From assembly GCF_032118995.1 (NCBI RefSeq), contig NC_092652.1:15752336-15816335 (forward strand): a DNA stretch of 64,000 nt, read 5' to 3'. How positions within the stretch are numbered: the stretch's first letter is position 1; every line of letters starts with the position of its first letter. This document shows, piece by piece, positions 12,381-60,602 of the stretch. Below the pieces are notes generated by a model. That model was given only the letters and a program-made list of their open reading frames with translations, was not told the origin of the DNA and made no database searches. This DNA is from Asterias amurensis. Its lineage: Eukaryota. Made by a program: the position numbers and the translations under genes.

Positions 12381-12532
12381 GGGGATGCGACTTATTATTT
12401 CAGAAAAAAAACCTTGTGATTTTTGTATTTTACATGAAATACTCAATGCACTCAAAAGGTTTCACAGTATTTGCTTTCACTTTCAGTGCGATACTTCGGC
12501 AGACATCAAAATATATGTGTTTTGTATTACAG

Positions 12533-12687
12533 TTAATCAAAGATATAGTGAATGTAAGTGAGTCAACCGACTGGTCCCAACGCAGTAGTAGTCAAGCAAG
12601 GTATCACGCAATACAGTGTTTCCTTAGCTACCTACCTCCAAATCATCCAGAATTCACAAAGATCCGAGATTTCTTTATTGAGACAAG
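12533..12687 (+). CDS. PARP4: PARP4-like exon (LIKDIVNVSESTDW...FFIET)
   Basis: ttgtattacag| acceptor, ag|gtatgc donor, ends phase 2 matching next exon. Confidence 0.55.
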
Positions 12688-13155
12688 GTATGCATTTTTC
12701 CTTATGTTTGGGAATGCTATTTGTGTGTGTGGCCATATAACAAGCTTCCGTTACACGGACTCTTTGAATGCGAATCTTACGTTAGATTTTCACCTTTATT
12801 TACATTTTGTAGCGATAATTTGAATACATGATCTTTTCGTCAATTACTCGTTAATAATAATATATAAAAAAAGATTTAAATTTGGTTTGGTAAGTTACTT
12901 TTAGATGGCTGGAAGTAAAAATAGCCCGGAAGGTCATGTGATTGTTTGTACCACTTTTTGGTTAGAACAATCACGCGACCTTCGTTTTGTTTTAAAATGC
13001 TCAAAAACTACCAAATTTTATGACTTTTTTAGAGACTGTTCTTCTTCATTTCTAGAAGACCGTTGAGTTCATTTCTTAGTCTATTGTGTAGCCCAAATAG
13101 CCCAATTCGGCCGGTGTGTCCCTTTAAAGCCTTCATTCACCATTTTGGCTTGCAG

Positions 13156-14582: not shown

Positions 14583-14792
14583 TTATAATTCCTTTAAAGG
14601 AACACGTTGCCTTGGATCGGTCGAGTTGGTCTTTGAAAAGCGTTTGTAACCATTTGTTATAAAATGCATATGGAAAGATGTTGTAAAAGTAGAATACAAT
14701 GATCCACACAAACATGCCTCGAAATTGCACGGTTTTCCTTTTACTTTGTCGACAAACACGGTCGGCCATTTATGGGGACTCCCATAAATGGA
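14583..14792. mobile_element. Foldback element, half copy
   Basis: ttaaaggaacacgttgccttggatcggtcgagttggtc...ggccatttatgggg.cccataaatgg central palindrome. Confidence 0.65.
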
Positions 14793-16015: not shown

Positions 16016-16962
16016 TGTAACGAAATGGTACCGCGCGGTGGCGCTCCAGGCTTAGCGCGAGAGTAGGCGCCCTTAGCGCGCGAAAAGGCGGTTTGGCGCG
16101 GCGCTGGCTGCCGCGGGGCATTTTGGGAAGCACGCTGCTGCCTCGTGCGTGGGGAGTGCGTAGCGGGCAGTTGCAGACTGGACAGCGGATGGTACAGACG
16201 TGTTTTCAATAGTGGTGTTTAACAATTGGCGGGGAGGATTAAGGCGGCGACGTGACTAGCGTGTTCACGTGTCGGGAGTAGTAGCAGGGCTAGCGTGGGG
16301 AGTTTTGGGAGTTGCGGTGCGTGCTGCTGACAGTTGTGTAACCGAGGGGTAGGTTTCATTGGATTATTTTCTGTGTTATTTATGGCAAGTTGGACGTAGA
16401 GACGTGCGATAATCCACTCCCGTAAGGAGGTCACATTGCATTGTATTGTTTGCTCTGGAGTCCGAGATTCTATCAGGCCCTTAAGGCATATTCTATTGTG
16501 TATTGTATTGGTTGCTCGGAGTTCGGGATTTTATCAGGCCCTAAAGGCAGCTTTGGTTTTACTGTAAATGCAGTTCAGTTACTTTAAGTTAGTTCCAGTT
16601 ACCTTAAGGGATTTTCCAGTTGCTTAAGGGATTACCAGTTACTTAAGGGATTTCGGTGACCTTAAGTTTAGTCAGTTGCCTTAAGGGACCATTTCTGGCC
16701 TTAAGTAAAGGAAGATTGCGTAGTTGGAATCAGGAATTACTGTGCTTTCGTAGGGATAATAAATAAAACGGATCAATAGTCAATCAGTAACTTGTCTCAG
16801 CCCTCACTCCTTGGAAGTCAACAGTTTCTTACAGTTTCTAGACCCCTTCCCCCACGTTTTTATTACATGCGGCGATATACGGTTGCCTAACGACCTCACC
16901 CCAAGTGCCAGCAGGACTACCGCTCGTCCTGTGCTGGTGACCACCAGACGGGAATCGCTACA
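16016..16962 (+). repeat. 5-prime LTR (947 bp)
   Basis: identical to 22147-23093 except about 3 substitutions (near 16062, 16364, 16573); contains tandem 20-bp CCTTAAGGGAT-type subrepeats. Confidence 0.9.
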
Positions 16963-16980
16963 TTGGTGTCAGAAGTGGGA
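16963..16980 (+). other. Putative primer binding site (TTGGTGTCAGAAGTGGGA)
   Basis: begins TGG immediately 3-prime of the 5-prime LTR. Confidence 0.4.
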
Positions 16981-17035
16981 TTTGCTGTAATTTTTGTGGG
17001 AGACAGGGTTATTCTAGAGCTGTATAACGGACTGC

Positions 17036-18292
17036 ATGATGGACCGGATGGATTCAAGGGCAATGGAGGAGGAGTTGGAGGTGCTTCGGATGGAGGTTCA
17101 TACAGCCGAAAATATAGTCGAGGATGCTGTCGAGGCCAGGCGGGTAATGGAGGAGGAGTTGCGCAGGATGCGTATGCAACACGCAGAGATGGAAGAGAGA
17201 CATAAGTCGGGCAGGGTCCTTGGAGCCCCTACGCCAGACATGTTTTTCAGCACTCCGAGTCCTGTGGTTTCCGGTACACTTAGGGACACCTCAGGAGCAG
17301 GATTCACACCTGCAAACACAGTTGCAGACACAGAATTCACAAGAGAACAGGAGGTGGGACGTAAGGAGGATGCGACTACTACCAGCCCCAAGGTGGACAG
17401 ACCTCGAAAACCGAACATTTGCCCGGATCGTTTCAATGGGAAGGTTCCTTGGAATGACTACAAGGCTCATTTCCGAGCTTGCTGCGTGGCGAATGCCTGG
17501 AGTGACGAGCAGGCGGTCGTGTTTCTCGCTGCCAGCCTCCAAGGGCAAGCGTTAAAGGTGCTGAGATGCCAGCCGGAGGGGAAGAAGTCGTCGCTTAAGG
17601 ACTTGATGCTCCGTCTGGACCAGAGATTTGGCCCGGGCCAACAAGCAGATTTCCATATGATGGAGGTGAGGCACCGTCGGCAGGGCGAAGTGGAAACACT
17701 GCAGGAGCTAGGGACGAGCATAAGGGAGCTATCTGCATTGGCCTACCCGGAATTCTCCGACGATAGCCGGGAACGGTTGGCTAAGGGACATTTCATGGAT
17801 GCGGTCAAGGACCGGGAGATTAGGGAAGGGATATTCCGGGTAAGCCCAACCTCTTTAGATGACGCCATTAGGGCCGCTCTGCAGACAGAAAGTTTCCTTC
17901 GGACAGAGGAACATAGGACCAATGGGAGGGGGAGAAAGTTTGCAAGGGTTGTTGCAGGAGGAGAGGACGAGGTCTCTCTGCAGGGTCTACAAGGAGAGTT
18001 AAGGGCCACTCAGGATCGCATGTCTAAGGCTTTGGGTGGAATACATGCCATGTTGGAGGACCTGTCACGTTCTAAGGGGGATTACCAGTCGGCAGTTCCA
18101 CGGGGAAGGTCAAGTGCAGACTATGCCTGTTACAACTGTGGCAAAAAGGGTCACTTCGCGAGGGAATGTTCTGAGCCGAGAAGGGAAAGGAGCTGGCAGT
18201 CGGGAAACGCTACCCAGCCAACCGTGGGGCCCAATGGAAGGCTGGAAATGGAGGAAGGACACAAAGAAACTTCCAAGGAGGGCCAGTGCTAG
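17036..18292 (+). CDS. gag: Gag polyprotein (418 aa) with capsid-like region and CCHC zinc knuckle
   Basis: ORF track; CYNCGKKGHFARECSE zinc knuckle; retrotransposon-gag-like FNGKVPWNDYKAHFRACCVANAWSDEQ; N-terminal Glu/Arg-rich coiled-coil-like stretch. Confidence 0.85.
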   Translation: MMDRMDSRAMEEELEVLRMEVHTAENIVEDAVEARRVMEEELRRMRMQHAEMEERHKSGRVLGAPTPDMFFSTPSPVVSGTLRDTSGAGFTPANTVADTEFTREQEVGRKEDATTTSPKVDRPRKPNICPDRFNGKVPWNDYKAHFRACCVANAWSDEQAVVFLAASLQGQALKVLRCQPEGKKSSLKDLMLRLDQRFGPGQQADFHMMEVRHRRQGEVETLQELGTSIRELSALAYPEFSDDSRERLAKGHFMDAVKDREIREGIFRVSPTSLDDAIRAALQTESFLRTEEHRTNGRGRKFARVVAGGEDEVSLQGLQGELRATQDRMSKALGGIHAMLEDLSRSKGDYQSAVPRGRSSADYACYNCGKKGHFARECSEPRRERSWQSGNATQPTVGPNGRLEMEEGHKETSKEGQC

Positions 18293-20484
18293 GAATGTAT
18301 AACCAAGGGATAACGCTCTCAGGGAAGAGTTCGAATATGGCAGGGCTATATGTGACCGCTCAGGTACGAGGAGTAAAAACACAGATGTTAATCGACACAG
18401 GTGCGTCAAACACGGTGCTGTCAGCAGCAGTTTACTATCAAATGGCTCCGGAGGGGAGACCTTCACTGAATACGAGGGGAGCGAAGTTGTACGGGGCGGA
18501 TGGTAGCTCCATAGAGACTATTGGCGGAGCATTGATGGAGATCCAGGTTGGCAAGACAACCCTCCCGGTACATGTGATATTTGCAAAATTGGATTTGGAG
18601 GGGATATTAGGAATGGACTTTCTCCTGCCTACAAATGGACGACTGGACTTCAAGGACATGGTGTTGACCCTGAATGGAGAACGAATAAGGTGCCAGAACG
18701 GTCAGGGTGCGAACGTTTGTGCACAGTGTGGAATGGAAGGACCGGACCTGGGTGGCCAGTTGCGCAAGTCAGGAGGAAGTGAAGGGATAGTGCCTGTACC
18801 GGATAGCGATGAAGGAGATAGTGGCCCTGCAGGAAAGGCTGAGGAAGCCAAAGCTGATTTGCGCGCCGTGGGTGTACTACCCCAAATAACCAAGGCCGAC
18901 TGGAGGGAGGCACAGCTTAGGGAAAGCTCTATGGAGTGGGTCATCAAGGCTAAGGAGGCCGAGGTACCCAGGCCAGACTGGGAGACAGTGTCAGTAACAT
19001 CCAGTGCAAGCAAGAACTATTGGCTACGATGGGAGCAGCTACTTGTTCGCGACGGCGTACTACAGCGTCGGTGGGAGTCTCACAATGGAAAGCAAACGCA
19101 GTGGCAAACCTTGGTACCTCAGGAGCTCCGAGGAGAGATATTGCATGAGCTCCACGCAGGAAGGCTGAGTGGACACTTAGGAACCAAGCGAACAATGGCG
19201 AAGGTGCACGGCAAGTTCTATTGGCAAGGGATGGCTGCAGACATAAGGTCCTTCATCCGAGAGTGTGATGTGTGTGCTAGGAGGAAGTCCCCCAACAAAA
19301 AGAGAAGGGCCCCTTTACAGCAACACCTAGTGGGAATTCCGATGGAGCGAGTAGCGATGGACATTACAGGACCCTTCCCAGTGACGAAGAATGGCAATCG
19401 TTACATACTTGTGATTGGGGACTACTTCAGTAAGTGGTTCGAAGCCTACCCCATTCCAGATGAGAAGGCAGAGACTGTTGCGGACAAGTTCGTCAAGGAG
19501 TTCGTGTGCAGGTTCGGCGTGCCTAAAACACTGCATACCGACCAAGGGAGAAATTTCGAGTCGAGGCTCATGGCCGAGGTGTGCAGAACGCTTGGGATTG
19601 AAAAGACCAGGACCACCCCCTACAACCCCAAGTCTGACGGAATGGTTGAGAGGTTTAACCGCACCCTGGTTAATATCGTAGCCATGCTGATGAAAGAACA
19701 AGCAAACAATAAGGACTGGGACGAGGAGTTGCCTTATGCGACGGCTGCTTACCGCAGCACACCACAAGAGTCCACTGGGGAAACCCCAAACATGCTGATG
19801 CTCGGTAGGGAAGTCTCTCTGCCCCTTGATTTGACAGTGGAGGAGCCCCCTGCAGGCGACGCAGATGGGAAGGAGGAGCGGGACTATGCCCAAGTGGTGC
19901 GTGAGAGAATGCAGGGCGCACATGAAAGGGCTAGAGCACGCTCGAAGAAAAGTGCAAGACGTCAGAAACAAAACTATGACAAGGGGACCAGCGAGGGCAA
20001 CTTTGCTGAAGGCACGTTCGCCTGGTTGTTCAACCCAGCGAAGAAGAAGGGGGTGTCACCCAAGTTGATGTGTAGGTGGGAAGGACCCTACCTTGTAGTA
20101 AACAGGCTGTCGGACGTAACCTTAAGGATACAAAGGAAGCCTGGAGGGAAAACGAAGGTTGTTCACTGTGACCGCCTTAAGCCGTATCAAGGTGCACCCT
20201 TACAGCCTTGGATGTCAGATGCAGACGAAGGGACGCAGGCCCTGCAGGGGCAACCCGCAGGAGATATCCCGGTGGATGATGCATCCCAGGTGGAAGTGAT
20301 TAATAGCCCGATGCCAGCGGGCCAGGTAGAACCAGAGACACCTGAAGGTGACCGGGAATCCTCTGAAGATATGGGCCATGCGGATCCTGCTCAGGTATCT
20401 AGACCCTTAGACATGACACCGTTGCCTGCACAGGCGAGACGGAATCCGTTGCGCCAGCGGAGGCCGCCACAGCGGTATCTGTAA
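18286..20484 (+). CDS. pol: Pol (732 aa) = aspartic protease + integrase only; no reverse transcriptase/RNase H
   Basis: -1 frame relative to gag with 7-nt overlap; LIDTGASNTV and GILGMDFL protease motifs; H-x3-H...C-x2-C zinc finger (HELHAGRLSGH...CDVCARRK); integrase D (VAMDITGPFP), D (LHTDQGRNFES), E (MVERFNRTL); GPY/F tail (WEGPYLVVNRL); no YxDD motif anywhere. Confidence 0.85.
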   Translation: MLGMYNQGITLSGKSSNMAGLYVTAQVRGVKTQMLIDTGASNTVLSAAVYYQMAPEGRPSLNTRGAKLYGADGSSIETIGGALMEIQVGKTTLPVHVIFAKLDLEGILGMDFLLPTNGRLDFKDMVLTLNGERIRCQNGQGANVCAQCGMEGPDLGGQLRKSGGSEGIVPVPDSDEGDSGPAGKAEEAKADLRAVGVLPQITKADWREAQLRESSMEWVIKAKEAEVPRPDWETVSVTSSASKNYWLRWEQLLVRDGVLQRRWESHNGKQTQWQTLVPQELRGEILHELHAGRLSGHLGTKRTMAKVHGKFYWQGMAADIRSFIRECDVCARRKSPNKKRRAPLQQHLVGIPMERVAMDITGPFPVTKNGNRYILVIGDYFSKWFEAYPIPDEKAETVADKFVKEFVCRFGVPKTLHTDQGRNFESRLMAEVCRTLGIEKTRTTPYNPKSDGMVERFNRTLVNIVAMLMKEQANNKDWDEELPYATAAYRSTPQESTGETPNMLMLGREVSLPLDLTVEEPPAGDADGKEERDYAQVVRERMQGAHERARARSKKSARRQKQNYDKGTSEGNFAEGTFAWLFNPAKKKGVSPKLMCRWEGPYLVVNRLSDVTLRIQRKPGGKTKVVHCDRLKPYQGAPLQPWMSDADEGTQALQGQPAGDIPVDDASQVEVINSPMPAGQVEPETPEGDRESSEDMGHADPAQVSRPLDMTPLPAQARRNPLRQRRPPQRYL

Positions 20485-20631
20485 TTAATTAGCTCTGGAG
20501 TATTGGGGGGATCGATTGTATGGTACTAGGACAACAAAGGCGTAACGTAGGAGTAGCAAACCAGTATGGGGGTAACTGCAGTGAAGTAACTGTTGCTTTG
20601 TTTGTTCTTTTTCTTTACAGTATAAAGGAGG

Positions 20632-21651
20632 ATGGAGGACCAAGAGCCAGGATGGAAGAGACCGAAGGACTGGGATAAGATGAAGCTATACGCATGTTCG
20701 GAGTGTGACGACACCTTCGTGAGCAAGAAGAGTCTTGAGACCCATCTGGGGACTCACACCACCAAGAAGAAGATCCTGTACTTCTGCAAGAGGTGTGACA
20801 GGAGATATACAAGGAAAGACAACCTGAAGGTTCACTATACCAACCACCACCCTGCAGGGATGCAGGACCTGGATACGCTGTACCCAGAAACGGAGGAAGA
20901 ACGGAGAGCTGCTAGTTCCCCAGGAGACGATGTGGATGTTCCGGGTGATTCCCCTGCCCCCTCGGGACGCAAGAGGAAGGAAACGGAGGTGACCAATCCC
21001 AGACCCAGAAAGGAGTCCAGGAAGAGGAGAGAGTGCACCGAGAAAACCAGGGAGCCACAGAAGGAAGAGGAATCGGCTGAGGAGACGCAGCTCCCCTCAA
21101 CTCCTGGGAGGAACCGGGTGATACAGGAAACGGCGGAACTGTCCTTGTCGCCAGCGTCAGTTTCCTTACTGGAAGAGGCGGGTCCTCGGCGCCGGGTAGT
21201 CCATGGAGGGAAACCTCGGGGTATGATTTCGATGATGAAGGATGCCCAGGAAGAGGGTACTGACGAGGAAGGAGTGGAGGACAACAACGACGCTCCTTTG
21301 TCCATTAATCTGGGGCGAGCACTAAAGGGAAGCACCCTACGATACAACGAAGGAGACCTGCAACAACACGTCTTTCAACCAGCTCAGGGTGTTCGACACG
21401 GGCTGGGACAAGCCGCACCGGTAGAGGAACCACCACAGGCGAGAGTGTGCCGGATCAATCGAGGCAACCCGGGGTGGCGAAAAGCAGTGCCACTTGATAC
21501 TGCTGACCTGGAGGTGATGATGGCTGGAAACGTCCGTAAGGTGAGAGAAGTCAACACAAGAAGCCAGTTTCAGAATGGCCTCAAGATCTCCGAAGAGGTC
21601 GTCGAGCGGACATACGACGTGCAGTTCACGGCAGGGTTTATCCTCAAGTAG
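20632..21651 (+). CDS. ORF3 (339 aa) C2H2 zinc-finger protein in env position of the LTR element
   Basis: two C2H2 fingers (YACSECDDTFVSKKSLETHLGTH; YFCKRCDRRYTRKDNLKVHYTNHH), then acidic/Ser-Pro-rich low complexity and a C-terminal ~100 aa unique region; intact ORF. Confidence 0.7.
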   Translation: MEDQEPGWKRPKDWDKMKLYACSECDDTFVSKKSLETHLGTHTTKKKILYFCKRCDRRYTRKDNLKVHYTNHHPAGMQDLDTLYPETEEERRAASSPGDDVDVPGDSPAPSGRKRKETEVTNPRPRKESRKRRECTEKTREPQKEEESAEETQLPSTPGRNRVIQETAELSLSPASVSLLEEAGPRRRVVHGGKPRGMISMMKDAQEEGTDEEGVEDNNDAPLSINLGRALKGSTLRYNEGDLQQHVFQPAQGVRHGLGQAAPVEEPPQARVCRINRGNPGWRKAVPLDTADLEVMMAGNVRKVREVNTRSQFQNGLKISEEVVERTYDVQFTAGFILK

Positions 21652-22134
21652 TTGTAGTCCACTTTAGGCTCGTTTTTACTAAAGCGTTACTTGTTTATAA
21701 CCTTGTTTTCTTTCAGTATAAAAGTTGTCTAAGAGAGTATATTTTGATAACAGATCTTGCCTTTGTAATCTTGTGTAATTCCCTTAAGGATTAGGTTACG
21801 AATTTGGATTGTATAACGTGATTGTGTTATGATTGGATTTGATTTGTATAAACTCCCTTAAGGAGACATTGTGATTTTTGAAATGTGTTTTACTTAAAGT
21901 TCCCTTTAGGAGCATTAGCAGACTCTTGCCTTAAAGTGTGTAAACCTCCCTTAAGGAGGCATTGTGATAACTTATTGTTTAAGCTCCCTTAAGGGGCCCC
22001 TTTGTTACTTAAAGGTGTCCGGCAGGTGCATTGTGGTGTATAAAATAACTATTTCTCTGTATAAATTTGTAAGCACCTTGAGGTACATTTCGTTTTTAGG
22101 GTATCAGTTTTACGGACCGGGTGGTCCTAACTTA

Positions 22135-22146
22135 AGTGGGGGGCTG
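22135..22146 (+). other. Putative polypurine tract (AAGTGGGGGGCT)
   Basis: purine-rich run directly upstream of 3-prime LTR. Confidence 0.45.
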
Positions 22147-23093
22147 TGTAACGAAATGGTACCGCGCGGTGGCGCTCCAGGCTTAGCGCGAGGGTAGGCG
22201 CCCTTAGCGCGCGAAAAGGCGGTTTGGCGCGGCGCTGGCTGCCGCGGGGCATTTTGGGAAGCACGCTGCTGCCTCGTGCGTGGGGAGTGCGTAGCGGGCA
22301 GTTGCAGACTGGACAGCGGATGGTACAGACGTGTTTTCAATAGTGGTGTTTAACAATTGGCGGGGAGGATTAAGGCGGCGACGTGACTAGCGTGTTCACG
22401 TGTCGGGAGTAGTAGCAGGGCTAGCGTGGGGAGTTTTGGGAGTTGCGGTGCGTGCTGCTGACAGTTGTGTAACCGAGGGGTAGGTTTTATTGGATTATTT
22501 TCTGTGTTATTTATGGCAAGTTGGACGTAGAGACGTGCGATAATCCACTCCCGTAAGGAGGTCACATTGCATTGTATTGTTTGCTCTGGAGTCCGAGATT
22601 CTATCAGGCCCTTAAGGCATATTCTATTGTGTATTGTATTGGTTGCTCGGAGTTCGGGATTTTATCAGGCCCTAAAGGCAGCTTTGGTTTTACTGTAAAT
22701 GCGGTTCAGTTACTTTAAGTTAGTTCCAGTTACCTTAAGGGATTTTCCAGTTGCTTAAGGGATTACCAGTTACTTAAGGGATTTCGGTGACCTTAAGTTT
22801 AGTCAGTTGCCTTAAGGGACCATTTCTGGCCTTAAGTAAAGGAAGATTGCGTAGTTGGAATCAGGAATTACTGTGCTTTCGTAGGGATAATAAATAAAAC
22901 GGATCAATAGTCAATCAGTAACTTGTCTCAGCCCTCACTCCTTGGAAGTCAACAGTTTCTTACAGTTTCTAGACCCCTTCCCCCACGTTTTTATTACATG
23001 CGGCGATATACGGTTGCCTAACGACCTCACCCCAAGTGCCAGCAGGACTACCGCTCGTCCTGTGCTGGTGACCACCAGACGGGAATCGCTACA
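22147..23093 (+). repeat. 3-prime LTR (947 bp)
   Basis: direct repeat of 16016-16962, starts TGTAACG ends GCTACA. Confidence 0.9.
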
Positions 23094-23336: not shown

Positions 23337-23716
23337 GTAAGGTAGCATTCATAAAGGTATCAACTAATAGTTATCAACTAAGAGGTGTCTATCTATAAAC
23401 TAACATTAACAAGCTGAGGCATAACCATCAACTAAATCAACGGTGTCAGTGAAAGACCATAAGATATTGGCCAATCAGTATCAACTAAATATTACTGTTA
23501 CTGTTTCGTTTATTAACACACAATACAATAAACGACATAATTTGATGGGCTCTGTGAAATTGAGTCACATAGGGCGTATACGTTCGGTTTTTAACACATG
23601 CCTTAATATACCAAACTCATTTGAATCATACTTTAATCACATTTTCCATAATGTTTTTTTTTTTTAATGATCATAACATACTGTTTTGATGTGACTGTCA
23701 TTGTTCAATCAACCAG

Positions 23717-23935
23717 GTAGTGGTCTTGCAGTCGTATCGTAACAATAGTGACGAAACCATGGAAGCCAAGTACGTATTTCCACTAGACCAATCAGCGGCA
23801 GTTTGTGGATTTGAGGCTTTCATCAATGATAAACATGTAGTTGGTGTCGTGATGGAAAATGAAATAGCTCATAGGGAGTATCGCCAAGCAGTGGAGGCTG
23901 GGCACGGAGCTTATCTTATGGACGAAGAATTTCCT
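23717..23935 (+). CDS. PARP4: PARP4-like exon, VIT domain (YVFPLDQSAAVCGFEAFINDK...GAYLMDEEFP)
   Basis: aaccag| acceptor, cct|gtaagt donor; strong VIT-domain motifs (FPLD..AV.GFEAFI..K..VG.V.E...A...Y..A...G.GAYL). Confidence 0.8.
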
Positions 23936-32193: not shown

Positions 32194-32449
32194 ACTTCCA
32201 CGTCGCACGTTTAACATCGCACATTCAGTTTTGTATTTAATGTTGGCGTAATGCATACACGTTTTTACCCTCCCCCATAGTGCTCAACTCTATAATTATG
32301 ACCTTGCCTACCAATTGTGTCTGTATATTTAGCTTGCGTGAATGCAACTACCATATTTAAAGGGAAGGGTCAGTTAACATAAATTTAATTTTACTCTAGA
32401 AAAAAGATAGGTTAAACTGAATAATGGTTCAAAAACCTGCCCGACACAG

Positions 32450-32632
32450 ATAATCCACAAGTTGGCAGCACATGCCGTGATCAGTGACTGGGAAGAGGGC
32501 GTCCTTCACGCTGATCGCCTGGAACACGAGGCTCAAAAGCATGAGCTTACGTCACGAATTGTAGAGCTGAGCATTCGCCATTCGATATTGACGCCAATGA
32601 CAAGCTTCATAGCAGTTGAAGAAAGAGAAGAA
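32450..32632 (+). CDS. PARP4: PARP4-like exon (VWA5A/PARP4-type C-terminal conserved region, TSFIAVEEREE)
   Basis: cccgacacag| acceptor, gaa|gtaagg donor; AVISDWEEG...ELSIRHSILTPMTSFIAVE matches the conserved TSFVAVE region of VWA5A/PARP4 proteins. Confidence 0.7.
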
Positions 32633-33090
32633 GTAAGGAGATATAGTAGTATTAAACCCTTGCAGACAAAGTATAGGGTAGATAGATAATTTTGGGGGAA
32701 AATAACAATATGAAAGCGCACTGACTGTACAGTTAATAATATTCAGTACCAAATCTGTAAATGCTGTCTGACTTAAAGGCATAGAAGAAAACACTAGAAA
32801 TCGGTGGTTCTTATTTTGATGCTGCAAGTTGAAATAAAGCATTGAATTGTGTTTCACGAAAAAATTAACGTCGCGGTTAACACAGAGCAAAGTTCACCTC
32901 CAATTGTCGAGCGTTCTTTTTTTATAAAAAATTAATTTCGATTTGTTTGCTATTTCTTTTGACCCACCCACCAACAATCTCGAATTTTGTAAAACTTCGA
33001 CCATTCTGATGGGTTATTAAATGCTTAGTGTTGAATAGTGGAATGTTATTGGTTTATTTTAACCGTCCATCCTTATTGAAATATATCAAG

Positions 33091-40383: not shown

Positions 40384-40999
40384 TGAAATGTGCACGCGTT
40401 GGCTGCGAGTCGTGTGCAGCTAGCATGCACTTTTCTGTTGTCACCAATCACATGGACAAAATTGGCAATCGTCAAAGATCAATTTTCGCACTTCTTGTGA
40501 CCAATAATAATACATAATTGTAGTAACCAGCCTTTGTAAATTTAGGCTCAAGCGGTCAATGCACGAGAAATTTTGTGAACAAAACGTATTTTCAATTTTT
40601 GTCTCGCGAGATCTGAACTATTGTTTTAATCATTATACAATTAGAAAAAGTATGGCATTTAGGCAAACCATTGTCACGGGAAGTTTGCTCATGACAATTC
40701 TTGTAGCTTGTTTGATGTAAGCAGATAGAATAGGTTTTTTTTATTTCTGTGAAAACATGTTTTTCTTTCTTTCTGAAATATACGCATAGATTTATTGCAA
40801 CTCCATATCTTAGAAAAAATAGCTATTATATTCAATGAGTCTTTATTTAAGTTTAAAGTTATCGATACGCCATCATGGACTTGACTTCGGAATAGTTTCA
40901 TTTTGTTTAGTTAGAGAATACATCCGAAATAGCAAAAATAAATAAATAAACAAATACCCGTAAGTATTTGTATTTCATATCAATGTAGACAATTAATTT

Positions 41000-41560
41000 G
41001 CCCTTATGGGGCATCCTTACTGTAGATCGATGTAGACAAATTGCCAAAGTTTGGCATAATGTATATCAAAGTAGACATTGCCCTTATGGGGCATACTTTC
41101 TATCGATGTAGACAAATTGCCAAAGGTCGGCACAATGTATATCAAATGGGGCGTACTGTGTATCAATGTAGACAAACTGCCAAAGTTCGGCATGCATATG
41201 TATATCAATGTAGACAAATTGCCCTATTGGGGCGTATGCAAGTCAATGTAGACAAGTTGCCCAAGTTCGGGCATAATGTGGACAAGTTGCCCAAGTTCGG
41301 GCATAATGTGGACAAGTTGCCCAAGTTCGGGCATAATGTGGACAAGTTGCCCAAGTTCGGGCATAATGTGGACAAGTTGCCCAAGTTCGGGCATAATTGT
41401 GATATCAGTGTAGACAAGTTGCCCAAGTTGGGCCTTATACCAATGTGGACAGGTTGCCCATCCAATTTGGGCATACGATATCAATGTAGACAAATGGGTC
41501 AATACCCAAGTGGTGCATAATATTATGTATATCGATGTAAACAAATACTAATAGTGGGGA
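41000..41560. repeat. Minisatellite; core of 5 perfect 30-bp units (GTGGACAAGTTGCCCAAGTTCGGGCATAAT) flanked by 40-60-bp variants
   Basis: 41248-41397 perfect copies. Confidence 0.85.
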
Positions 41561-41839
41561 ATTATGTCATTTCGGGCAAGTTGCAGGGAAAATACCAATC
41601 TGGACAAATTGCTCAAGCAGGGTGTCAATTAATACTATCGTATCAGCAGAACAAACAACGATCACAGGCTTGAAACAAAGTCTTTAGTCTACAGGCTATT
41701 TGAATAATTCTTATATTTTAGAGGCTGAATTGTTGTGTTTTGAATATTATTGTGATGATTATATTGTGTATGGAATACATTTTTTTAGTATAAATATATG
41801 TTGTTATTCTTGACTTGAACAATCCAACGGATTAATAAT

Positions 41840-44800
41840 TAAGAGTCAGTTCAGGTAAATAATTGACATAGTTGCTCACGGTCAAAAAATGAATTTTTTT
41901 TAGACTTTGTGGGTGGAAGGGCCTTGGGGTGCAAGTAAACAAAATTGCATTTTTAATTCCATATATAGCCCGTTGCCATGGTTACAGCTCATTTTGTTTT
42001 TAGGCCATTTTAGGCCGATTTTGAGGTCTGAAAAACGGGTTTTTAGCTCATATTTACAACTCCACCCCACCAAAATGCAAAATCATTTCAAAAAACCTTT
42101 TATATCATTACAAAGTATCATCCTTGGCCTTCCTTGAGAAAAAAAATTATTGCTTTAAATATCACCCTTGTGCTATTTTTGCATCATGCATTACAGTATG
42201 GTTTTTGAACTTGCAAAATCGACATTTTTACCCTATTTTTGGACCCCAAAATGTCAACTTGCCAGGGGTCTCAGAAAACTCTCCTTTCGGCTGTGATTAG
42301 GGCAAACATTGGTCTTTCCATATCTGGTGTCAAAAACTTGGGCAATTGTATCCTGTTGTGACAGTACTGCCTCAAAACTAGACTTTTTTCCCCAAAACGT
42401 GAAAAATGCCTTTTTAAGGGTCTTTTCACATAATATCGACATACGTGTCCACGGTAAAAAAAAGGCATATTTTTCTTATACTTTGTGGATGGTAGGGACT
42501 TGGGGTCCAAATAAACAGCATTAACATTTCAAATCATAATATAACACGTTGCCATGGTAACCGTTCATTTGTGTTTAGGCCACTTTAGTCCAATTTTGGG
42601 GTCTGAAAAAACTTTTTTTTAGTTATTATTTACAACTCCACCCCACCAAAATCAAAAATATTTCATAAAACTTTTTCCATCACTACAAAGTATCATCCTT
42701 GGCTTTACTTGGGACAAAAAAAATTGCTATAAAATTCACCGTTTTGTTATTTTTGGAACATGCATTAGAATATGTTTTTAGAACTTGCAAAATCAACAAT
42801 TTTTACCATATTTTTGTGCCTCAAAATTTCATTTTTTTCAGGGGTCTCAGAATATTTTCCTTTCAGTTTTGATCAGGTCCAAAATTTGTCCTTTTTTTTC
42901 GGGTAGAAAAACTTGGGCAAGTGTATCCAGATGTTAACAGTACTGTCTCAAAAATAGACAGAAAAATGCATTTTAAATTGTTTTTTTTCTTCATCATGAA
43001 TTTTGAACATTAAAAAGTAATAATTCTATCAATCTTGCAGCTTTTCCTAAGCACTCTATAGGCTTAGTGGATTACCCAACATTGATCAGGAACGATTGAT
43101 GACCTTAATTTGAGAATTTGCCCCGGCCCAGCCCCAATCATATATCTTGACATTGCATAAAACAATGTTTTGTGAATAGCGCCTCTTTTTTGTAAAGTGT
43201 TCCCTTTCGGTTGTATTGGTATTTTCATGCCTTCTGGGTAGAAACACTGTGTTTATTGTATCCTGTTGTGACTGATCATGCCTTAAGTATAGTAAGTTTT
43301 CCCAAAACAATGCATGCTTGTTAAAAATCTGGCACTGTTTCCATGCCCTTTGAGTAATGAATACAAAGTTTGTATTTAAACATAATGGTATCCAACAAAA
43401 CCATAACCAATGCTTTGCCACTGAGAGTTCTTGATTTGGCTACTTTACCTATTGTACAGGTATGATTCCCATTGCAAGTAGAGTGCGATGAGCATTCTCT
43501 ACAAGTTGTCTTTAATACAGGGCCTACTCACCTTGGTCCCTGCCTGCTACCAATTGTAAAACTTTTCATAGAGATAGAGATCATAAACAATGTAGTTTCT
43601 GTGCTTGGGGCAGATGGTTTGGAGCATCCAATCATGTCCAACACAAATGTGGGAAATTAAAAAGCCTGCTTAAAAGTGTTGGAAAAGTTTGCCAAGATCT
43701 TATTAAAAACAATGATACTAACGATTTGCATGACGAGCGTAAGATATCATTTAAAAGGAACACGTTGCCAGGGATCGGTCAAGTTGGTCTTTGAAATGCG
43801 TTTGTAACCGCTTGTTATAAAATGCATGGTTAGAAAGATGTTTTTGAGTGATACTTGTCTGGATCATTATACTCTACTTTTAAAATATCTTTCTAATCAT
43901 ATGCATTTTGTAATAAACGTTTACAAACGCTTTTCAAAGACCAACTCGACCGACCCAAGGCAACGTGTGTTCCTTTAATGAAACAACACGGATAGAAGTT
44001 GTAAATACTTGAACCTGCTCAACATAAGTAAGTAAGATGCATTTGCAGTGACAAAAGTTTATTCGGCTAGTTTGATTATTTTTTCCATTCACTATTTTAC
44101 TAGTTCATAATTAGCATATATGTCTCTGAGAACGATCAACAAAAAACATTGTCAAACATTACCTGCTGAACTCTTTTATTGTTTGCAACAGTACAATTGA
44201 AAGGAACCCCACCATGGTTGGGGGAACTGCTTACAGAAGGCCAAAGCAGTTGAATTTGGACACAGTACTTGCTCACTTTTAGAGCCTCTTTGTTCTGATA
44301 GGGATGAAAATGTTTAGTTTGGTAGCGGGCAGGGGACCAAGAAGACTGTTAAAAGGCCATGTACAAATGTATAGACAAGAATAGTAAAGAATGCTCATCG
44401 CACTACTTCTCTTCTTGCAATGTGAATCATACCTGTACAACTAGGTAAAGTAGTCATGACAAAACAAGAACTCTCAGTGGCAAAGCTTGGTTATAATTTT
44501 TGTATATGTTACCTTAAGAATATGGAAACAGTGCCATATTTTTTTAACAAGCATGCTCGTTTTTGTTTTTTATCAATTCAAACTAAGGGATAACTTCAAA
44601 ATGCATTTTTATTGTTTTTGGAAAAATTACCATGTTTGAGGCAGAAGTGTCACAATAGGATACAATAAACCAAAGTGTTTCTCCCCAGCAGACATGCAAA
44701 CCATAATGATTGCCCAATCACAACCAAAGGGGAAATATTCTGAGGACCAATAATAAATTAAGACAGTACAAACTTTCTTGATGTGCAAGGGAAATTAAAA

Positions 44801-46190
44801 AATGTGACTTTCAAAAAAGAGGCGCTGTTCACAAAACTTTTGTATTTTTTTTATGCAATGTCAAGAAATATGATTGGGCCGGGGCCGGGGCAAATTCTAA
44901 GATTTAGGTCATTAACAAGTCCTGATCAATGTTTGGTAATGCACTAAGCCTACAGAGTGCTTATGACAAGCTGCCAGATTGATGGAATTATTACTAACTT
45001 CTTAAGGTTTTAAATTCAAAATGAAGCAAATATTTCAAAATGCATTTCTCTATGTTTTCGGGGAAAAGGGTTTATTTTTGAGACAGTTCTGTTACATCAG
45101 GATACAATTGCCCGGGTTTGTCTTAAAAGAAATAAAAAGACAAGTTTTGGCCCTGATCAAAACCGAAAGGAAAATATTCTGAGACCCCTGCAAAAATGAA
45201 ATTTTGAGGGCAAAAAATGTGGTAAAAATGTTGATTTTGCAAGTTCTAAAAACATACTCTAATGCACGATCTTAAAACACCACAAGGGTGAAATTTTTAG
45301 CAATAATTTTTTGTCTCAAGTAAAGCCAAGGATGATAATTTGTAGTGATGGAAAAGGTTTTATGAAATATGCTTGTTTGTTGGTGGGGTGGAGTTGTAAA
45401 TATTAACTAAAAAACAGTTTTTCAGACCCCCAAATTGGCCTAAAAACAAACAAACTGTTACCATGGCAACGTGTTATATTATGATTTGAAATGTAAATGC
45501 TGTTTATTTGGACCCCAAGTCCCTACCATCCACAAAGTATAAGAAAAATTTTCCTTTTTTTTTACACGTGGACACGTTTATCGATATTTTGTGAAAAGAC
45601 CCTTAAAAAGGCATTTTTCACGTTTTGGGGAAAAAAGTCTAGTTTTGAGGCAGTACTGTCACAACAGGAAACAATTGCCCAAGTTTTTGACACCAGATAT
45701 GGAAAGACCAGTGTTTGCCCTAATTACAGCCGAAAGGAGAGTTTTCTGAGACCCCTGGCAAGTTGACATTTTGGGGTCCAAAAATAGGGTAAAAATGTCG
45801 ATTTTGCAAGTTCTAAAAACATACTGTAATGCATGATGCAAAAATAGCACAAGGGTGATATTTAAAGCAATAATTTTTTTTCTCAAGGAAGGCCAAGGAT
45901 GATACTTTGTAATGATATAAAAGGTTTTTCGAAATGATTTCGCATTTTGGTGGGGTGGAGTTGTAAATATGAGCTAAAAACCCGTTTTTCAGACCCCAAA
46001 ATCGGCCTAAAATGGCCAAAAAACAAAATGAGCCGTAACCATGGCAACGGGCTATATATGGAATTGAAAATGCAATTTTGTTAACTTGCACCCCAAGGCC
46101 CTTCCACCCACAAAGTATAAAAAAAATTCATTTTTTGACCGTGAGCAACTATGTCAATTATTTACCTGAACTGACTCTTAATTTCACGAA
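41840..46190. repeat. Large imperfect palindrome: inverted arms 41840-43700 and 44230-46190, each with two ~570-bp tandem units
   Basis: right arm is reverse complement of left (e.g. 43086-43140 vs 44860-44940; 41907-42476 vs 45500-46080); foldback MITE in spacer. Confidence 0.8.
43750..43978. mobile_element. Foldback element (short form) at centre of large palindrome
   Basis: arms aaggaacacgttgcc...gaccaactcgaccgacccaaggcaacgtgtgttcctt. Confidence 0.7.
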
Positions 46191-46908
46191 ATGTGTATTA
46201 GTTACTTTATTACAGACTGTAAGTTTGAATGAACCCGGTATCCGGGAAAAACTCCTTGCTGATTTTGAGGGTTTCTTTTTCTGAAATATTGGTATACAGC
46301 TCTGAAGCAAAATTTTAATATCTGCGTGCATGCAGACAATCAGAAGAAGAAAAAAAAGATTTAAAAACCATCGTTAAAACGTTTGTCGATGGACGCTCAT
46401 GTAATTACGATAACATGATCGATCTGTTAATCTTGGGCCCTTTTCGAAACGACTGGATTTGGCTATTGATTCGGCTCAAGCTAGCTTGGCCCCGCCGGTT
46501 GGTTTGACAATTGCGCGTGCTTTTGGGTGTAAGCGCTCAGCTTCAGACGAGAGAACGGAGCCTCAAGCCGAAGCCGTGGTTTCGAAAAGGGCATATTTCT
46601 CTTTAACAGTTTAAAAGCAAAGTGTGGTTTCAGAAATTAAATTACTCTGGAGATTTTGACCAACTCGTCTTTTAGATGAATCTTAATGTATTGTGAAGTC
46701 GAGTACAGGACCCAACCTCCGTAAAATAGATTTGTCTAAAATAGTGCCTATACTGTCAAACATAGAAAATAGTATCTTATTTTGTTGAAGACCCTCCAAT
46801 AAACACATACTTTGCTTATTTTGATATAAATCGAAGTAAGCAAACACGTTTGAAAACACACTGAACCCCAATGGGCACCAAAACACAGTACGTGTTGGGG
46901 TTGCCTCC

Positions 46909-49790: not shown

Positions 49791-50163
49791 TTAAGGAACG
49801 CGTTGCCTTGGATCGGACGAGTTGGTCTATAAAAAGCATTTGTAACCCTTTTTTAAATGCATATGTTTGGAAAGATGTTTTAAAAGTAGAATACAATGAT
49901 CCACACAAGTTTGCCTCGAAATTGCGTGGTTTTCCTTTTACTTTGGGAACTAACACGGTTGGTCAAAAATTTGACTCCCATAAATGGCCGACCGTGTTAG
50001 TCGACGATGTAAAAGGAAAACCGTGCAATTTCGAGGCGTTATTGTGTGGATCATTGTACTCTACTTTTACAACATCTTTCTACTCAAACGCATTTTATAA
50101 CAAACGGTTACAAACGCTTTTCAAAGACCAACTCGACCGATCCAAGGCAAAGTGTTCCTTTAC
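49791..50163. mobile_element. Foldback element, full copy (~180-bp arms)
   Basis: near-perfect palindrome around ggccgaccgtgttag. Confidence 0.8.
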
Positions 50164-55562: not shown

Positions 55563-55950
55563 TTAAAGGAACACGTTGCCTTGGATCGGACGAGTTGGTC
55601 TATAAAATGCGTTTGAAACCGTTTGTTATAAAATGCATAAATGGTTAGAAAGAGGTTTTTAAAGTAGAATATAATGATCCACACAAGTATCACTCGAAAC
55701 TGCACGGTTTTCCTTTTACGTCGCGAACTAACACGGTCGGCCATTTTTGGGAGTCAAAATGTTGACTCCCATAAATGGCCGATCGTGTAAATCGACGAGG
55801 TATAAAGAAAACCACGCAATTTCGAGGCATGTTTGTGTAAATCATTGTATTCTACTTTTACAACATCTTTCTACCCATATGCATTTTATAACAAACGGTT
55901 ACAAATGCTTTTCAAAGACCAACTCGACCGATCCAAGGCAACGTGTTTAA
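55563..55950. mobile_element. Foldback element, full copy
   Basis: same family; flanked by ttaggacgagtaactcgtcctaa-type short palindromes. Confidence 0.8.
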
Positions 55951-59560: not shown

Positions 59561-59612
59561 TAGGGTACGACTAAATTGTTCTTATAAGCTTTAATTATCT
59601 GTTCATATACAG

Positions 59613-59833
59613 ATGCAGTTCCAAAATGTGACTCGGCAAATGGGTGGAAAAACTACAACGGTATGTGCTACAGACTCTTTACCTACAAAACAACATGGCA
59701 GACGGCTGAAAACGATTGCAAGCTGACACCAGGTGGACATCTAGCTTACGCCAAAACTGCTGACGACCAGGCGTTTTTAGACAACTTGCAATACAGTCAC
59801 GGATACGAGTACTGGCTTGGTCTATCTGATAAG
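59613..59833 (+). CDS. CTLD-B exon 1
   Basis: gttcatatacag| acceptor, aag|gtaact donor; CDSANGWKNYNGMCYRLFTYKTTWQTAENDCKL...AFLDNL..YWLGLSD. Confidence 0.75.
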
Positions 59834-60602
59834 GTAACTTCATTGACTTGTCGAGTTGCTGGCATGTACTGAGGCTCCGCCCAGTAATAAAGTGCTGAGC
59901 TACAAGCAATTTATTTTTGTACATGTTGCCTCAGTTTTTCAAGCTACATACTAAGTTATAAGTTAACATTTGAATTTAATAAGTCATTTGAAAATATAGG
60001 TTTTCTCGGTCAAATTCGGCAAATGAGCAGTCAATTTCATTTTCATGCGTTCGAATTAAAGCTGTTTTGCCTCTTCAGTTGTTAGTGCGTTTCAAATTCA
60101 GGAACCGGCCATTCAATTTCGTTTTGAATTGAGTCAAATTCCTTTAGCACTATGTTCAATTTAGCGTAGCGTCATTCTGTTTCGTGACACACACGCCTCA
60201 AGAAGCGTCTGCGAATTTGAATGCTGCTTTGATGAATTGTTAAATTGAATGATTATTTTGTCAATTCGAATGACGCAACATTACATTTGACTAATCCCAA
60301 AACGAAATCGAATGACCCTTTTGAGTAGCATTCGATTTTGCGCGAAATAGAATTGCTTGGTGGTTAAATTGGCTGCTCATTTTCCGAAATTGACCGAGAA
60401 AACCTATAATATCAGTTGTTTTGTCAGTAGTTTTGTCTTTTGAAAACAATTTAGGCCTGGTCAATATTTTGTTCTGTTATTTTTATCAACGTCGACAGAC
60501 AATTTTTCACAGGCATCGTTTTTTTTTAAAGTATTGATCATCCCAAAAGACATTTGCAGACAATTAAAAAAAAAATGTTTTAACTTACCATTTTTTTAAC
60601 AG

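Follow-up and report, generated by a model that had tools for sequence, protein, structure and literature searches.

The segment at positions 41839-46181 of the window (the whole 64,000-nucleotide stretch of Asterias amurensis DNA that was analysed) is quite probably one copy of a non-autonomous, foldback-type cut-and-paste DNA transposon, whose transposase superfamily is probably Kolobok. It is an ordinary repeat and represents no new kind of structure. A large foldback transposon was among the readings offered in a preliminary description of this DNA, and it is supported by the dispersed copies, their precise common terminus, the long and internally repetitive inverted arms, the non-coding middle and the TTAA found at both ends. 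Foldback elements are recognized by terminal inverted repeats (TIRs) that account for most of their length, by tandem repeats inside these TIRs, by a non-coding middle and by dispersed copies with common termini, all four of which the present element shows.

The 4.3-kb imperfect palindrome noticed earlier spans 41839-46181, and its arms are collinear along their full length. Indeed, the self-comparison proposed with the preliminary description, run as gapped blastn of 41500-46500 against the window, gave arm-long collinearity and no scattering of short inverted matches. In particular, 41837-43198 and the reverse-complemented 44807-46183 share 89.3% identity over 1,396 columns, 53 of them gap columns (E=0), and collinear inverted matches continue inwards at 43222-43311/44611-44700 (81%), 43304-43344/44522-44563 (88%) and 43397-43569/44304-44500 (76%), the weaker mirror homology ending at 43569/44304. 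The arms (41843-43569 and 44304-46177), each of ~1.7-1.9 kb, thus account for ~83% of the 4,335-bp element. The original estimate of ~90% identity between them is accurate for the main alignment, but the identity is uneven, being highest in the outer ~600 bp (95-99%) and falling to 77-91% in the inner unit and to 60-82% further in.

Each arm contains two tandem units, as had been proposed, each of ~575 bp. Direct matches of ~78-79% are found in both arms (41839-42383/42414-42959, 78.7%, on the left; 45034-45560/45603-46136, 78.4%, on the right), and all four units can be aligned with one another. The ~700 bp of each arm that had been called unique-looking are, instead, still mirrored and hold a degenerate, partial third unit. 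The unit starts with GAGTCAGTTCAGG and ends with ...AAATGCCTTT, neither being the inverted copy of the other, and at its start the inner unit has an RR terminus of its own (TTAA followed by GGGTCTTTTCAC), a diverged copy of the outer one. The layout of the element is as follows, L001 and L002 being metagenome contigs that carry copies of the units:

41839..41842, no strand: left flanking TTAA, putative target-site duplication; the homology of five independent ends begins exactly here
41843..42413, plus strand: left arm outer tandem unit U1, start GAGTCAGTTCAGG; 97.7% identical to right U1, 95.7-97.1% to L001/L002
42414-42417: internal TTAA after left U1
42418..42972, plus strand: left arm inner tandem unit U2, start GGGTCTTTTCAC; ~78% identical to U1, 88.1% to right U2, 93.8% to L001
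42973-42976: internal TTAA after left U2
42977..43569, plus strand: left arm inner domain; 60-82% identical, apart from indels, to its mirror image in the right arm
43215-43307: left degenerate partial third unit, 69% identical to unit positions 470-558
43570..44303, no strand: asymmetric non-coding middle domain, without inverted match and without Pfam match in six frames
43751..43978, no strand: nested, internally deleted T2-type MITE, TTAA-AAGGAACACGTTGCC...GGCAACGTGTGTTCCT-TTAA, recognized by family copies, fold and TTAA on both sides
44304..45034, minus strand: right arm inner domain, mirror of 42977-43569
44594-44743: right degenerate partial third unit, 72% identical to unit positions 432-579
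45035-45038: TTGA, degenerated TTAA on the inner side of right U2'
45039..45602, minus strand: right arm inner tandem unit U2', from the unit alignment
45603-45606: internal TTAA between U2' and U1'
45607..46177, minus strand: right arm outer tandem unit U1', from the unit alignment; ends in the terminal 23-mer
46178..46181, no strand: right flanking TTAA, putative target-site duplication

Within the window, the terminal 23-mer has exactly two occurrences, one per element end (0 expected by chance), and allowing up to 3 mismatches adds no other site. The motif GGTCT[CG]A[AG] is over-represented, 8 of its 14 occurrences in the window falling inside the element; this is a trivial consequence of the repeats, and the motif was rejected as independent evidence of binding sites because its enrichment comes from the repeat structure alone.

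Mobility is indicated by copies elsewhere. The U1-U2 dimer was found on metagenome contigs at 94.6% (L001), 94.3% (L002) and 85.5% (L003/L004) identity, giving, with the element of the window, 4 independent loci in all. Across these four loci all five ends start at TTAAGAGTCAGTTCAGG, the flanking DNA being unrelated; TTAA is present at 5/5 ends, and the base before it varies (A, A, T, A, G). As judged by these sequence comparisons, 41839-46181 is a mobile element. The contig L003 carries, all in the same orientation, U1-U2, a deletion, the right end of the MITE and the equivalent of window positions 43996-44124 (88.5% identical and joined to the arm). Because the dimer is connected in L003 with the MITE end and the centre, the arm travels together with the centre and, from one copy plus L003, we infer that the complete palindrome is the transposing unit. 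L003 itself is a deletion derivative of the element.

The terminal module is more strongly conserved across the family than the inner unit: identity among close copies is 95.5-97.7% in U1 versus 88-96% in U2, there are 7 and 6 private substitutions in U1 against 24 and 29 in U2, and at five U1 sites a derived state is common to both arms. In U2, the arms of the window are 88% identical to each other versus 92-94% to L001, so that they are no closer mutually than to that external copy.

Other collections yielded no further copies. The unit motif had 0 matches in prokaryotic genome contigs, the terminal 20-mer had 0 in viral contigs, and neither the 89-aa unit ORF nor the Gag ORF of the window had an exact match in the assembly collection. 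A literature search with sequence strings (from unit, terminus, MITE and upstream array) retrieved only an unrelated pulmonary-hypertension preprint, taken as coincidental. An exon-like peptide adjoining the L003/L004 copy had no match in Pfam; our impression, and only that, is that it resembles the start of the cyclic-nucleotide-binding domain of a K+ channel.

The spacer between the arms had been put at ~500 bp, a value that stands when the MITE is left out of the count; with the MITE, the asymmetric centre measures ~735 bp. The foldback described at its middle is confirmed at 43747-43981 (235 bp), with 81-nt arms and a DNA fold of -74 kcal/mol (z = -16.8). Its family has 4 copies in the window, the others lying at 14593-14724, 49793-50162 and 55563-55947, and the copies at 14593 and 55563 have ends in which TTAA is followed by AGGAACACG. 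T2-MITEs, which are Kolobok-associated, are defined by a TTAA target and terminal AGGRR (PMC6004289); the nested MITE shows exactly this arrangement (TTAA followed by AGGAA) in a short, multicopy foldback without coding capacity. The presence of such a family is a sign of Kolobok-type activity in this genome. The right end of the MITE is also found in L003 and, therefore, the MITE was already in the source copy of the family. Against Rfam, the MITE hairpin gave only a sub-threshold match, to the MIR1435 precursor (45.5 bits versus a gathering score of 94); this identity was rejected on account of the score, and the match was taken as generic hairpin similarity.

The element terminates in GAGTC...GACTC (5'-GA...TC-3'), with TTAA, itself palindromic, at both ends; an empty site of this locus would be expected to read ...GGATTAATAA-TTAA-TTTCACGAAATG, with a single TTAA if TTAA is duplicated. 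We infer that TTAA is the duplicated target site; it could instead represent the element's own terminal bases, and TTAA is also found at internal unit junctions. The Kolobok transposase is a DDD/E enzyme with a C/DxxH signature, and the termini of piggyBac are 5'-CC...GG-3', a terminus type rejected in view of the ends found here. Kolobok elements have TTAA target-site duplications (TSDs) and, unlike piggyBac, termini 5'-RR and YY-3' (PMC9587614), a rule with which GA...TC agrees. As far as the ends tell, the superfamily is probably Kolobok, a weak assignment because 'RR' termini have a 1-in-4 prior. That the same kind of non-autonomous foldback transposon was mobilized by another TTAA- or TA-targeting transposase (piggyBac, a Sola-like superfamily with 4-bp TSDs or, with TA, Tc1/mariner) seems unlikely. 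TTAA flanks are common to piggyBac too (PMC9587614), and TTAA and TA are both palindromic, so that inverted symmetry cannot tell them apart. However, GA...TC is the published discriminator between Kolobok and piggyBac (PMC9587614), T2/Kolobok-type MITEs are present in the genome and, a TA duplication would have host DNA immediately before it, but a T stands there in 5/5 ends (chance ~0.3^5).

The modular arms raise the question of whether the palindrome is a single ancestral element at all. It could be a composite, either of foldback elements nested at TTAA like Russian dolls, with U1/U1' outside U2...U2', or of two one-armed copies that landed head-to-head. TTAA at every unit junction, the inner unit's own RR terminus as a diverged version of the outer end, the stepwise drop of arm identity at the unit boundary and, in U2, arms no more alike than unrelated copies would all fit such an origin. 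We nevertheless consider it quite unlikely: the U1-U2 order is the same in all external copies, so any nesting predates the spread of the family and the composite now moves as one, and in L003 the left arm is connected with the part of the centre that lies past the MITE. Furthermore, two independent insertions would not end the mirror homology symmetrically at 43569/44304 around a centre that is not mirrored.

The element encodes nothing and is dead-looking. Six-frame translation of 42960-45050 (inner arms and centre) gave no Pfam match, nor did any of the element's open frames of 75 residues or more; the ORFs of this inner region, concatenated for a protein search, returned no homologue, and within the window no autonomous partner or transposase was found. 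Among database proteins, the unit ORFs have a single relative, a cluster of two gene calls (P0001 and P0002, both of 268 aa), which do not translate under the standard code. The small ORFs at 42271-42510 (minus strand) and 45497-45766 (plus strand) had been thought to be mirrored and to give identical peptides; they lie in different frames and do not mirror each other (local score 36), and the true mirror pairs, similar but not identical, are 42271-42510(-)/45591-45749(+), with 50/52 residues identical, and 42254-42442(-)/45497-45766(+), with 57/62.

A role at the RNA level, compatible with the transposon reading, would be that of a long hairpin-RNA (endo-siRNA) locus exploited by the host, in which transcripts of the palindrome would form a stem of ~1.7 kb to be diced into small RNAs. 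The predicted RNA fold has -2612 kcal/mol, compared with -1050 when one half is flipped as a control, 1,561 of the 1,839 predicted pairs link the two halves, and co-transcription is possible, as a PARP4-like gene on the plus strand has its last mappable exon 9 kb upstream of the element. We regard this use as very unlikely, given that no RNA family was matched apart from the sub-threshold match of the MITE to a miRNA precursor model, that the sequence behaves as a decaying repeat and that the dispersed copies argue for a structure owed to transposition.

It is highly improbable that the palindrome results from a local inverted segmental duplication or from an assembly artefact (a chimeric fold-back read, or strand switching at the MITE hairpin). 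The inverted arrangement is visible in this assembly only, the external contigs being too short to hold both arms, and the centre does contain a hairpin-forming repeat. However, the arms differ by 11% plus 53 gap columns, whereas the two halves of an artefactual fold-back are near-identical; strand switching at the MITE would need mirrored flanks, and those of the MITE are not mirrored; the order of arm, MITE end and 43996-44124 is independently confirmed by L003; and a purely local duplication is excluded by the copies with a precise terminus at other loci. DIRS-like retroelements have an internal complementary region matching their termini, a reverse transcriptase and a tyrosine recombinase; such an element was rejected, the terminal 23-mer being found only at the two ends (with up to 3 mismatches) and no coding remnant being present. 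Helitrons and Helentrons lack TIRs, start with 5'-TC, end with CTRR-3' and a subterminal hairpin, and insert between A and T. Non-autonomous Helentrons do have satellite-like arrays in some marine invertebrates (PMC7492417), but the probability of a Helitron- or Helentron-related structure carrying tandem repeats is practically negligible, as the ends are inverted copies of each other for >1.3 kb, read GAGTC...GACTC rather than 5'-TC...CTRR-3' and are flanked by TTAA.

The preferred reading, that of a foldback transposon, would work as follows. Two TIRs of ~1.7-1.9 kb surround a non-coding middle of ~735 bp, inside which sits an older T2-type MITE. A transposase encoded elsewhere would act in trans, recognizing the conserved terminal module and inserting the element at TTAA; the TTAA flanks and the 5'-GA...TC-3' termini point to an enzyme of the Kolobok superfamily. 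By analogy with Galileo and Foldback, the modules of the arms probably supply several transposase-binding sites. A bolder proposal, to which we give only a small chance, is that this is the first described foldback-type Kolobok lineage, the arms of which grow by whole TTAA-delimited modules of ~575 bp, each with its own transposon end, possibly by self-nested insertion at TTAA rather than by slippage, while the 1.7-kb hairpin, located within the PARP4-like gene or shortly downstream of it, may supply substrate to the small-RNA pathways of the host.

In practice, annotators should mask this stretch as a non-autonomous DNA transposon and disregard the small ORFs in it. Long palindromes of this kind are hotspots for deletion and ectopic recombination, a behaviour with consequences for how stable the PARP4-like gene nearby is.

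The foldback design is thought to have several independent origins in different superfamilies, mostly in Mutator, with Galileo belonging to the P superfamily, and the target-site duplication is of 9 bp in FB and 7 bp in Galileo. A TTAA-flanked, RR-terminated echinoderm foldback would add Kolobok to the list, provided that a matching transposase turns up. Elements of this structural class have been described before as Tetris, Galileo and FB (PMC4079207, PMC3688188), with which the present element shares very long TIRs making up most of its length, tandem repeats inside them, a short non-coding middle and the existence of non-autonomous and rearranged or deleted copies. Tetris of D. virilis has TIRs of up to 1,735 bp built on ~220-bp repeats and no ORF (PMC4079207); here, TIRs of ~1.7-1.9 kb contain repeats of ~575 bp, that is, much longer and fewer modules, and the flanks are TTAA instead of the 8-10-bp duplication of Tetris (PMC4079207). 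In contrast to FB, Tetris and Galileo, there is no separate flanking domain, the module itself including the terminus, so that the inner module holds a diverged end; furthermore, the host is an echinoderm, whereas theirs are insects. The TU elements of sea urchins have short outer-domain repeats (~15 bp) and an 8-bp duplication. They are likened to the present element by description only, as foldback transposons in an echinoderm (cited in PMC4079207).

Among Kolobok-related elements, the T2-MITEs of Xenopus (e.g. Xmix) have the same TTAA target and 5'-RR...YY-3' termini (PMC6004289, PMC9587614), and in Xmix, too, internal segments are tandemly amplified; however, the large element starts with GAGTC and not AGGRR, measures 4.3 kb as opposed to a few hundred bp, and has its repeats within inverted arms. 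The KolobokP composite-like transposons of bivalves, echinoderms and others resemble it in their marine-invertebrate range, end modules of several hundred bp, multimers and RR/YY termini (PMC9587614). The KolobokP modules, ~450 or ~660 bp long, are directly repeated (LTDRs) and have their own TIRs of 11-18 bp (PMC9587614), whereas here the ends are inverted and the units, of ~575 bp, have no TIRs of their own, differences on which an identity with KolobokP was rejected.

The palindrome at 41839-46181 is a foldback in which two inverted arms enclose an asymmetric centre. In a gapped self-comparison, 41837-43198 and 44807-46183, read on opposite strands, align at 89.3% across 1,396 columns, so that the arm-long collinearity of the preliminary description holds with small corrections, and inward of this main match collinear inverted matches reach 43569/44304. 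Global alignment of the two halves gives 95-99% arm-to-arm identity for the outer ~600 bp, 77-91% for the next ~550 bp inward and 60-82%, with indels, up to 43565/44304; within the ~735-bp centre identity between the halves is at random level. Each arm contains two tandem ~575-bp units, the outer (U1) and the inner (U2) being ~78% alike, and all module boundaries carry TTAA (TTAA / U1, GAGTC...CCTTT / TTAA / U2, GGGTC...GCATT / TTAA), the innermost one of the right arm being decayed to TTGA. The mirrored reading frames earlier credited with identical peptides do not survive as such: the pair named lies in different frames, and the pairs that do mirror each other are similar without being identical. 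The computed fold of the single-stranded whole element is one long hairpin (MFE -2612 kcal/mol, against -1050 kcal/mol when one half is flipped as a control), and a host hairpin-RNA locus would, by such modelling, be physically possible.

Degenerate partial units of the palindrome and copies of the foldback MITE
43215-43307, left inner domain: degenerate partial unit, 69-72% to unit positions ~430-580
44594-44743, right inner domain: degenerate partial unit, 69-72% to unit positions ~430-580
43751-43978: MITE copy in the palindrome, internally deleted
49793-50162: MITE copy, full-length
55563-55947: MITE copy, full-length
14593-14724: MITE copy, half element

The central foldback noticed earlier is genuine, belonging to a repeat family with further copies in the window (four per 64 kb; full length, 370-385 bp) and having a near-perfect hairpin in the fold computation. 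This hairpin also yields the sole Rfam signal of the element, a sub-threshold match to the MIR1435 miRNA precursor model. The MITE ends read TTAA / AGGAACACGTTGCC, in exact agreement with the TTAA plus AGGRR that mark the Kolobok-associated T2-MITEs according to Hikosaka and colleagues (PMC6004289). Because of this exact fit the nested MITE shows, to judge from its termini, that Kolobok-type elements were once active in this genome.

The window, of eukaryotic origin, has a GC content of ~38%, save for a block of 51-53% at 16-22 kb, and neither tRNA genes nor any Rfam family at gathering score were found in it. The GC-rich block is an LTR element (16016-22930), with LTRs from 16016 and 22147; since these are 100%-identical, its insertion into an intron of a PARP4-like gene is very recent.

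Features surrounding the palindrome
10448-32659, plus strand: exons of the PARP4-like (vault PARP) gene, located with tblastn and covering residues ~277-1220 in full-length homologues
13.1-15.3 kb, plus strand: PARP catalytic, PARP4-like gene
23714-23935, plus strand: VIT, PARP4-like gene
25.7-30 kb, plus strand: vWA-like exons, PARP4-like gene
32447-32659, plus strand: last mappable exon, PARP4-like gene
17036-18292: LTR-element ORF
18286-20484: LTR-element ORF
20632-21651: LTR-element ORF
59588-59869, plus strand: C-type lectin exon, one of two ORFs matching Lectin_C

The LTR element encodes Gag (zf-CCHC), a protease-integrase and a C2H2 zinc-finger ORF, and has no reverse-transcriptase (RT) or RNase H Pfam match. 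The best named homologues of its Pol are from echinoderms, namely a 1,216-aa protein of Patiria miniata, 60% identical across 96% of the query, and one of Strongylocentrotus purpuratus at 52%; by this single mobile-element protein the host is likely to be an echinoderm. As an RT domain is likewise not listed for the Patiria miniata homologue, the element may represent an RT-less lineage mobilised in trans. A weak 'Glyco_trans_2_3' Pfam match at 12416-12823, on a PARP4-like exon, is probably spurious. Nine kb separate the palindrome from the last PARP4 exon that could be mapped; since the homologues are not conserved over their C-terminal third, it may sit either in a 3' intron or between genes. 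The lectin exon indicates a putative second host gene downstream of the palindrome. Directly upstream of the element, outside its TTAA boundary, a tandem array (40980-41600) comprises five perfect 30-bp units (41245-41397) adjoining older 60/76-bp units, each unit with the motif TGTAGACAA(A/G)TTGCC and a GCCC-N6-GGGC hairpin; no second copy of the array occurs within the window.

A scan of metagenome contigs for a motif that does not vary among the four units hit two of them, L001 and L002. Searched against proteins, the unit ORFs returned the 268-aa gene call P0001 (P0002 belongs to the same cluster), which is not reproduced from its locus by the standard code and which led to contigs L003 and L004, a single locus at 99.6% identity. 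U1 is followed by U2 in every external contig, as in the window, with L001 matching 41833-42959 at 94.6%, L002 matching 41838-42715 at 94.3% and L003 matching 41839-42929 at 85.5%. Five ends are available, two in the window (left and right) and one each in L001, L002 and L003/L004. Their flanks are mutually unrelated, homology always starts at TTAAGAGTCAGTTCAGGTAAATA, and TTAA is preceded by A, A, T, A or G; this pattern marks a transposed element with a defined terminus, present at four independent loci. Past U1-U2 (to the equivalent of 42929), L003 has the right MITE end, followed in unchanged orientation by a stretch 88.5% identical to window 43996-44124. On this structure L003 is an internal-deletion derivative and, so read, shows the arm, the MITE and the centre to have been linked in a common ancestor and to move together. 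The deletion (L003 1175-1216) joins the inner unit (window 42929) to a MITE arm (43945) at 2-3-bp microhomology (CC/CCA), in keeping with the expected tendency of long palindromes to suffer deletions. The L003/L004 flank includes an exon-like segment with AG/GT borders (L004 about 247-357), encoding 36 residues that have no Pfam match and that we take to resemble the start of the cyclic-nucleotide-binding domain of a KCNH/CNG-type channel; if the segment is real, this copy appears to be intronic.

That the palindrome is an assembly artefact is unlikely, given that the arms diverge by 11% with many indels, that the sequences flanking the MITE do not mirror each other and that the join between arm and centre is independently backed by L003. 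With copies dispersed over several loci, an inverted duplication of purely local origin is ruled out. The first reading in the preliminary description, a foldback transposon, was right: the element has long internally repetitive TIRs, a non-coding middle and dispersed copies with a precise terminus. The present copy is non-autonomous, since Pfam matches are absent from any frame of 42960-45050 and from the open frames of at least 75 residues within the element, a search of the protein collection gave no homologue for the inner ORFs, and no transposase was found across the whole window.

Across the family the terminal module is far better conserved than U2. In U1, identity among the window arms, L001 and L002 is 95.5-97.7%, whereas in U2 the window arms are 88.1% identical to each other and 92-94% to L001. 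Site by site, arm-private substitutions number 7 and 6 in U1 and 24 and 29 in U2, and the two arms have a derived state in common, as judged against L001 and L003, at five U1 sites but only one U2 site. As neutral decay after insertion would hit both modules equally, the difference must have arisen in the active lineage, through selection acting on the terminal ~575 bp, through copying between the arms in that part, or through both. [quoted passage not shown] Because TTAA bounds each module and the inner one opens with a divergent version of that terminus, the arms are compatible with an origin by tandem duplication including the flanking TTAA or by nested insertion of related foldbacks at TTAA. 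Under either origin the composite is older than the spread of the family, the U1-U2 order being common to all copies.

As to the superfamily, Kolobok elements make TTAA duplications and, unlike piggyBac, have 5'-RR and YY-3' termini (Kojima and Bao, PMC9587614), in agreement with the TTAA at both ends and the GA...TC termini found here. Assignment to Kolobok is at most moderately supported by these features, the TTAA being a putative duplication and RR having a prior of one in four. A TA (Tc1/mariner) duplication is unlikely, since it would make the base in front of TA part of the host DNA, yet that base is T in five of five ends; KolobokP differs in that its terminal repeats are direct, of ~450 or ~660 bp, each with short TIRs of its own, and the Helitron and DIRS-like readings fail on terminal structure. 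The element is best described as a family not recorded before, though of a structural kind already known, sharing with FB, Galileo and Tetris the long internally repetitive TIRs, the short non-coding middle and the rearranged derivatives. Tetris has TIRs of up to 1,735 bp with ~220-bp repeats and without ORF (PMC4079207), but its reported duplications are of 8-10 bp, whereas the present element adjoins TTAA at both ends, starts with GA and finishes with TC; Kolobok, if true, would be an unusual superfamily for a foldback architecture.
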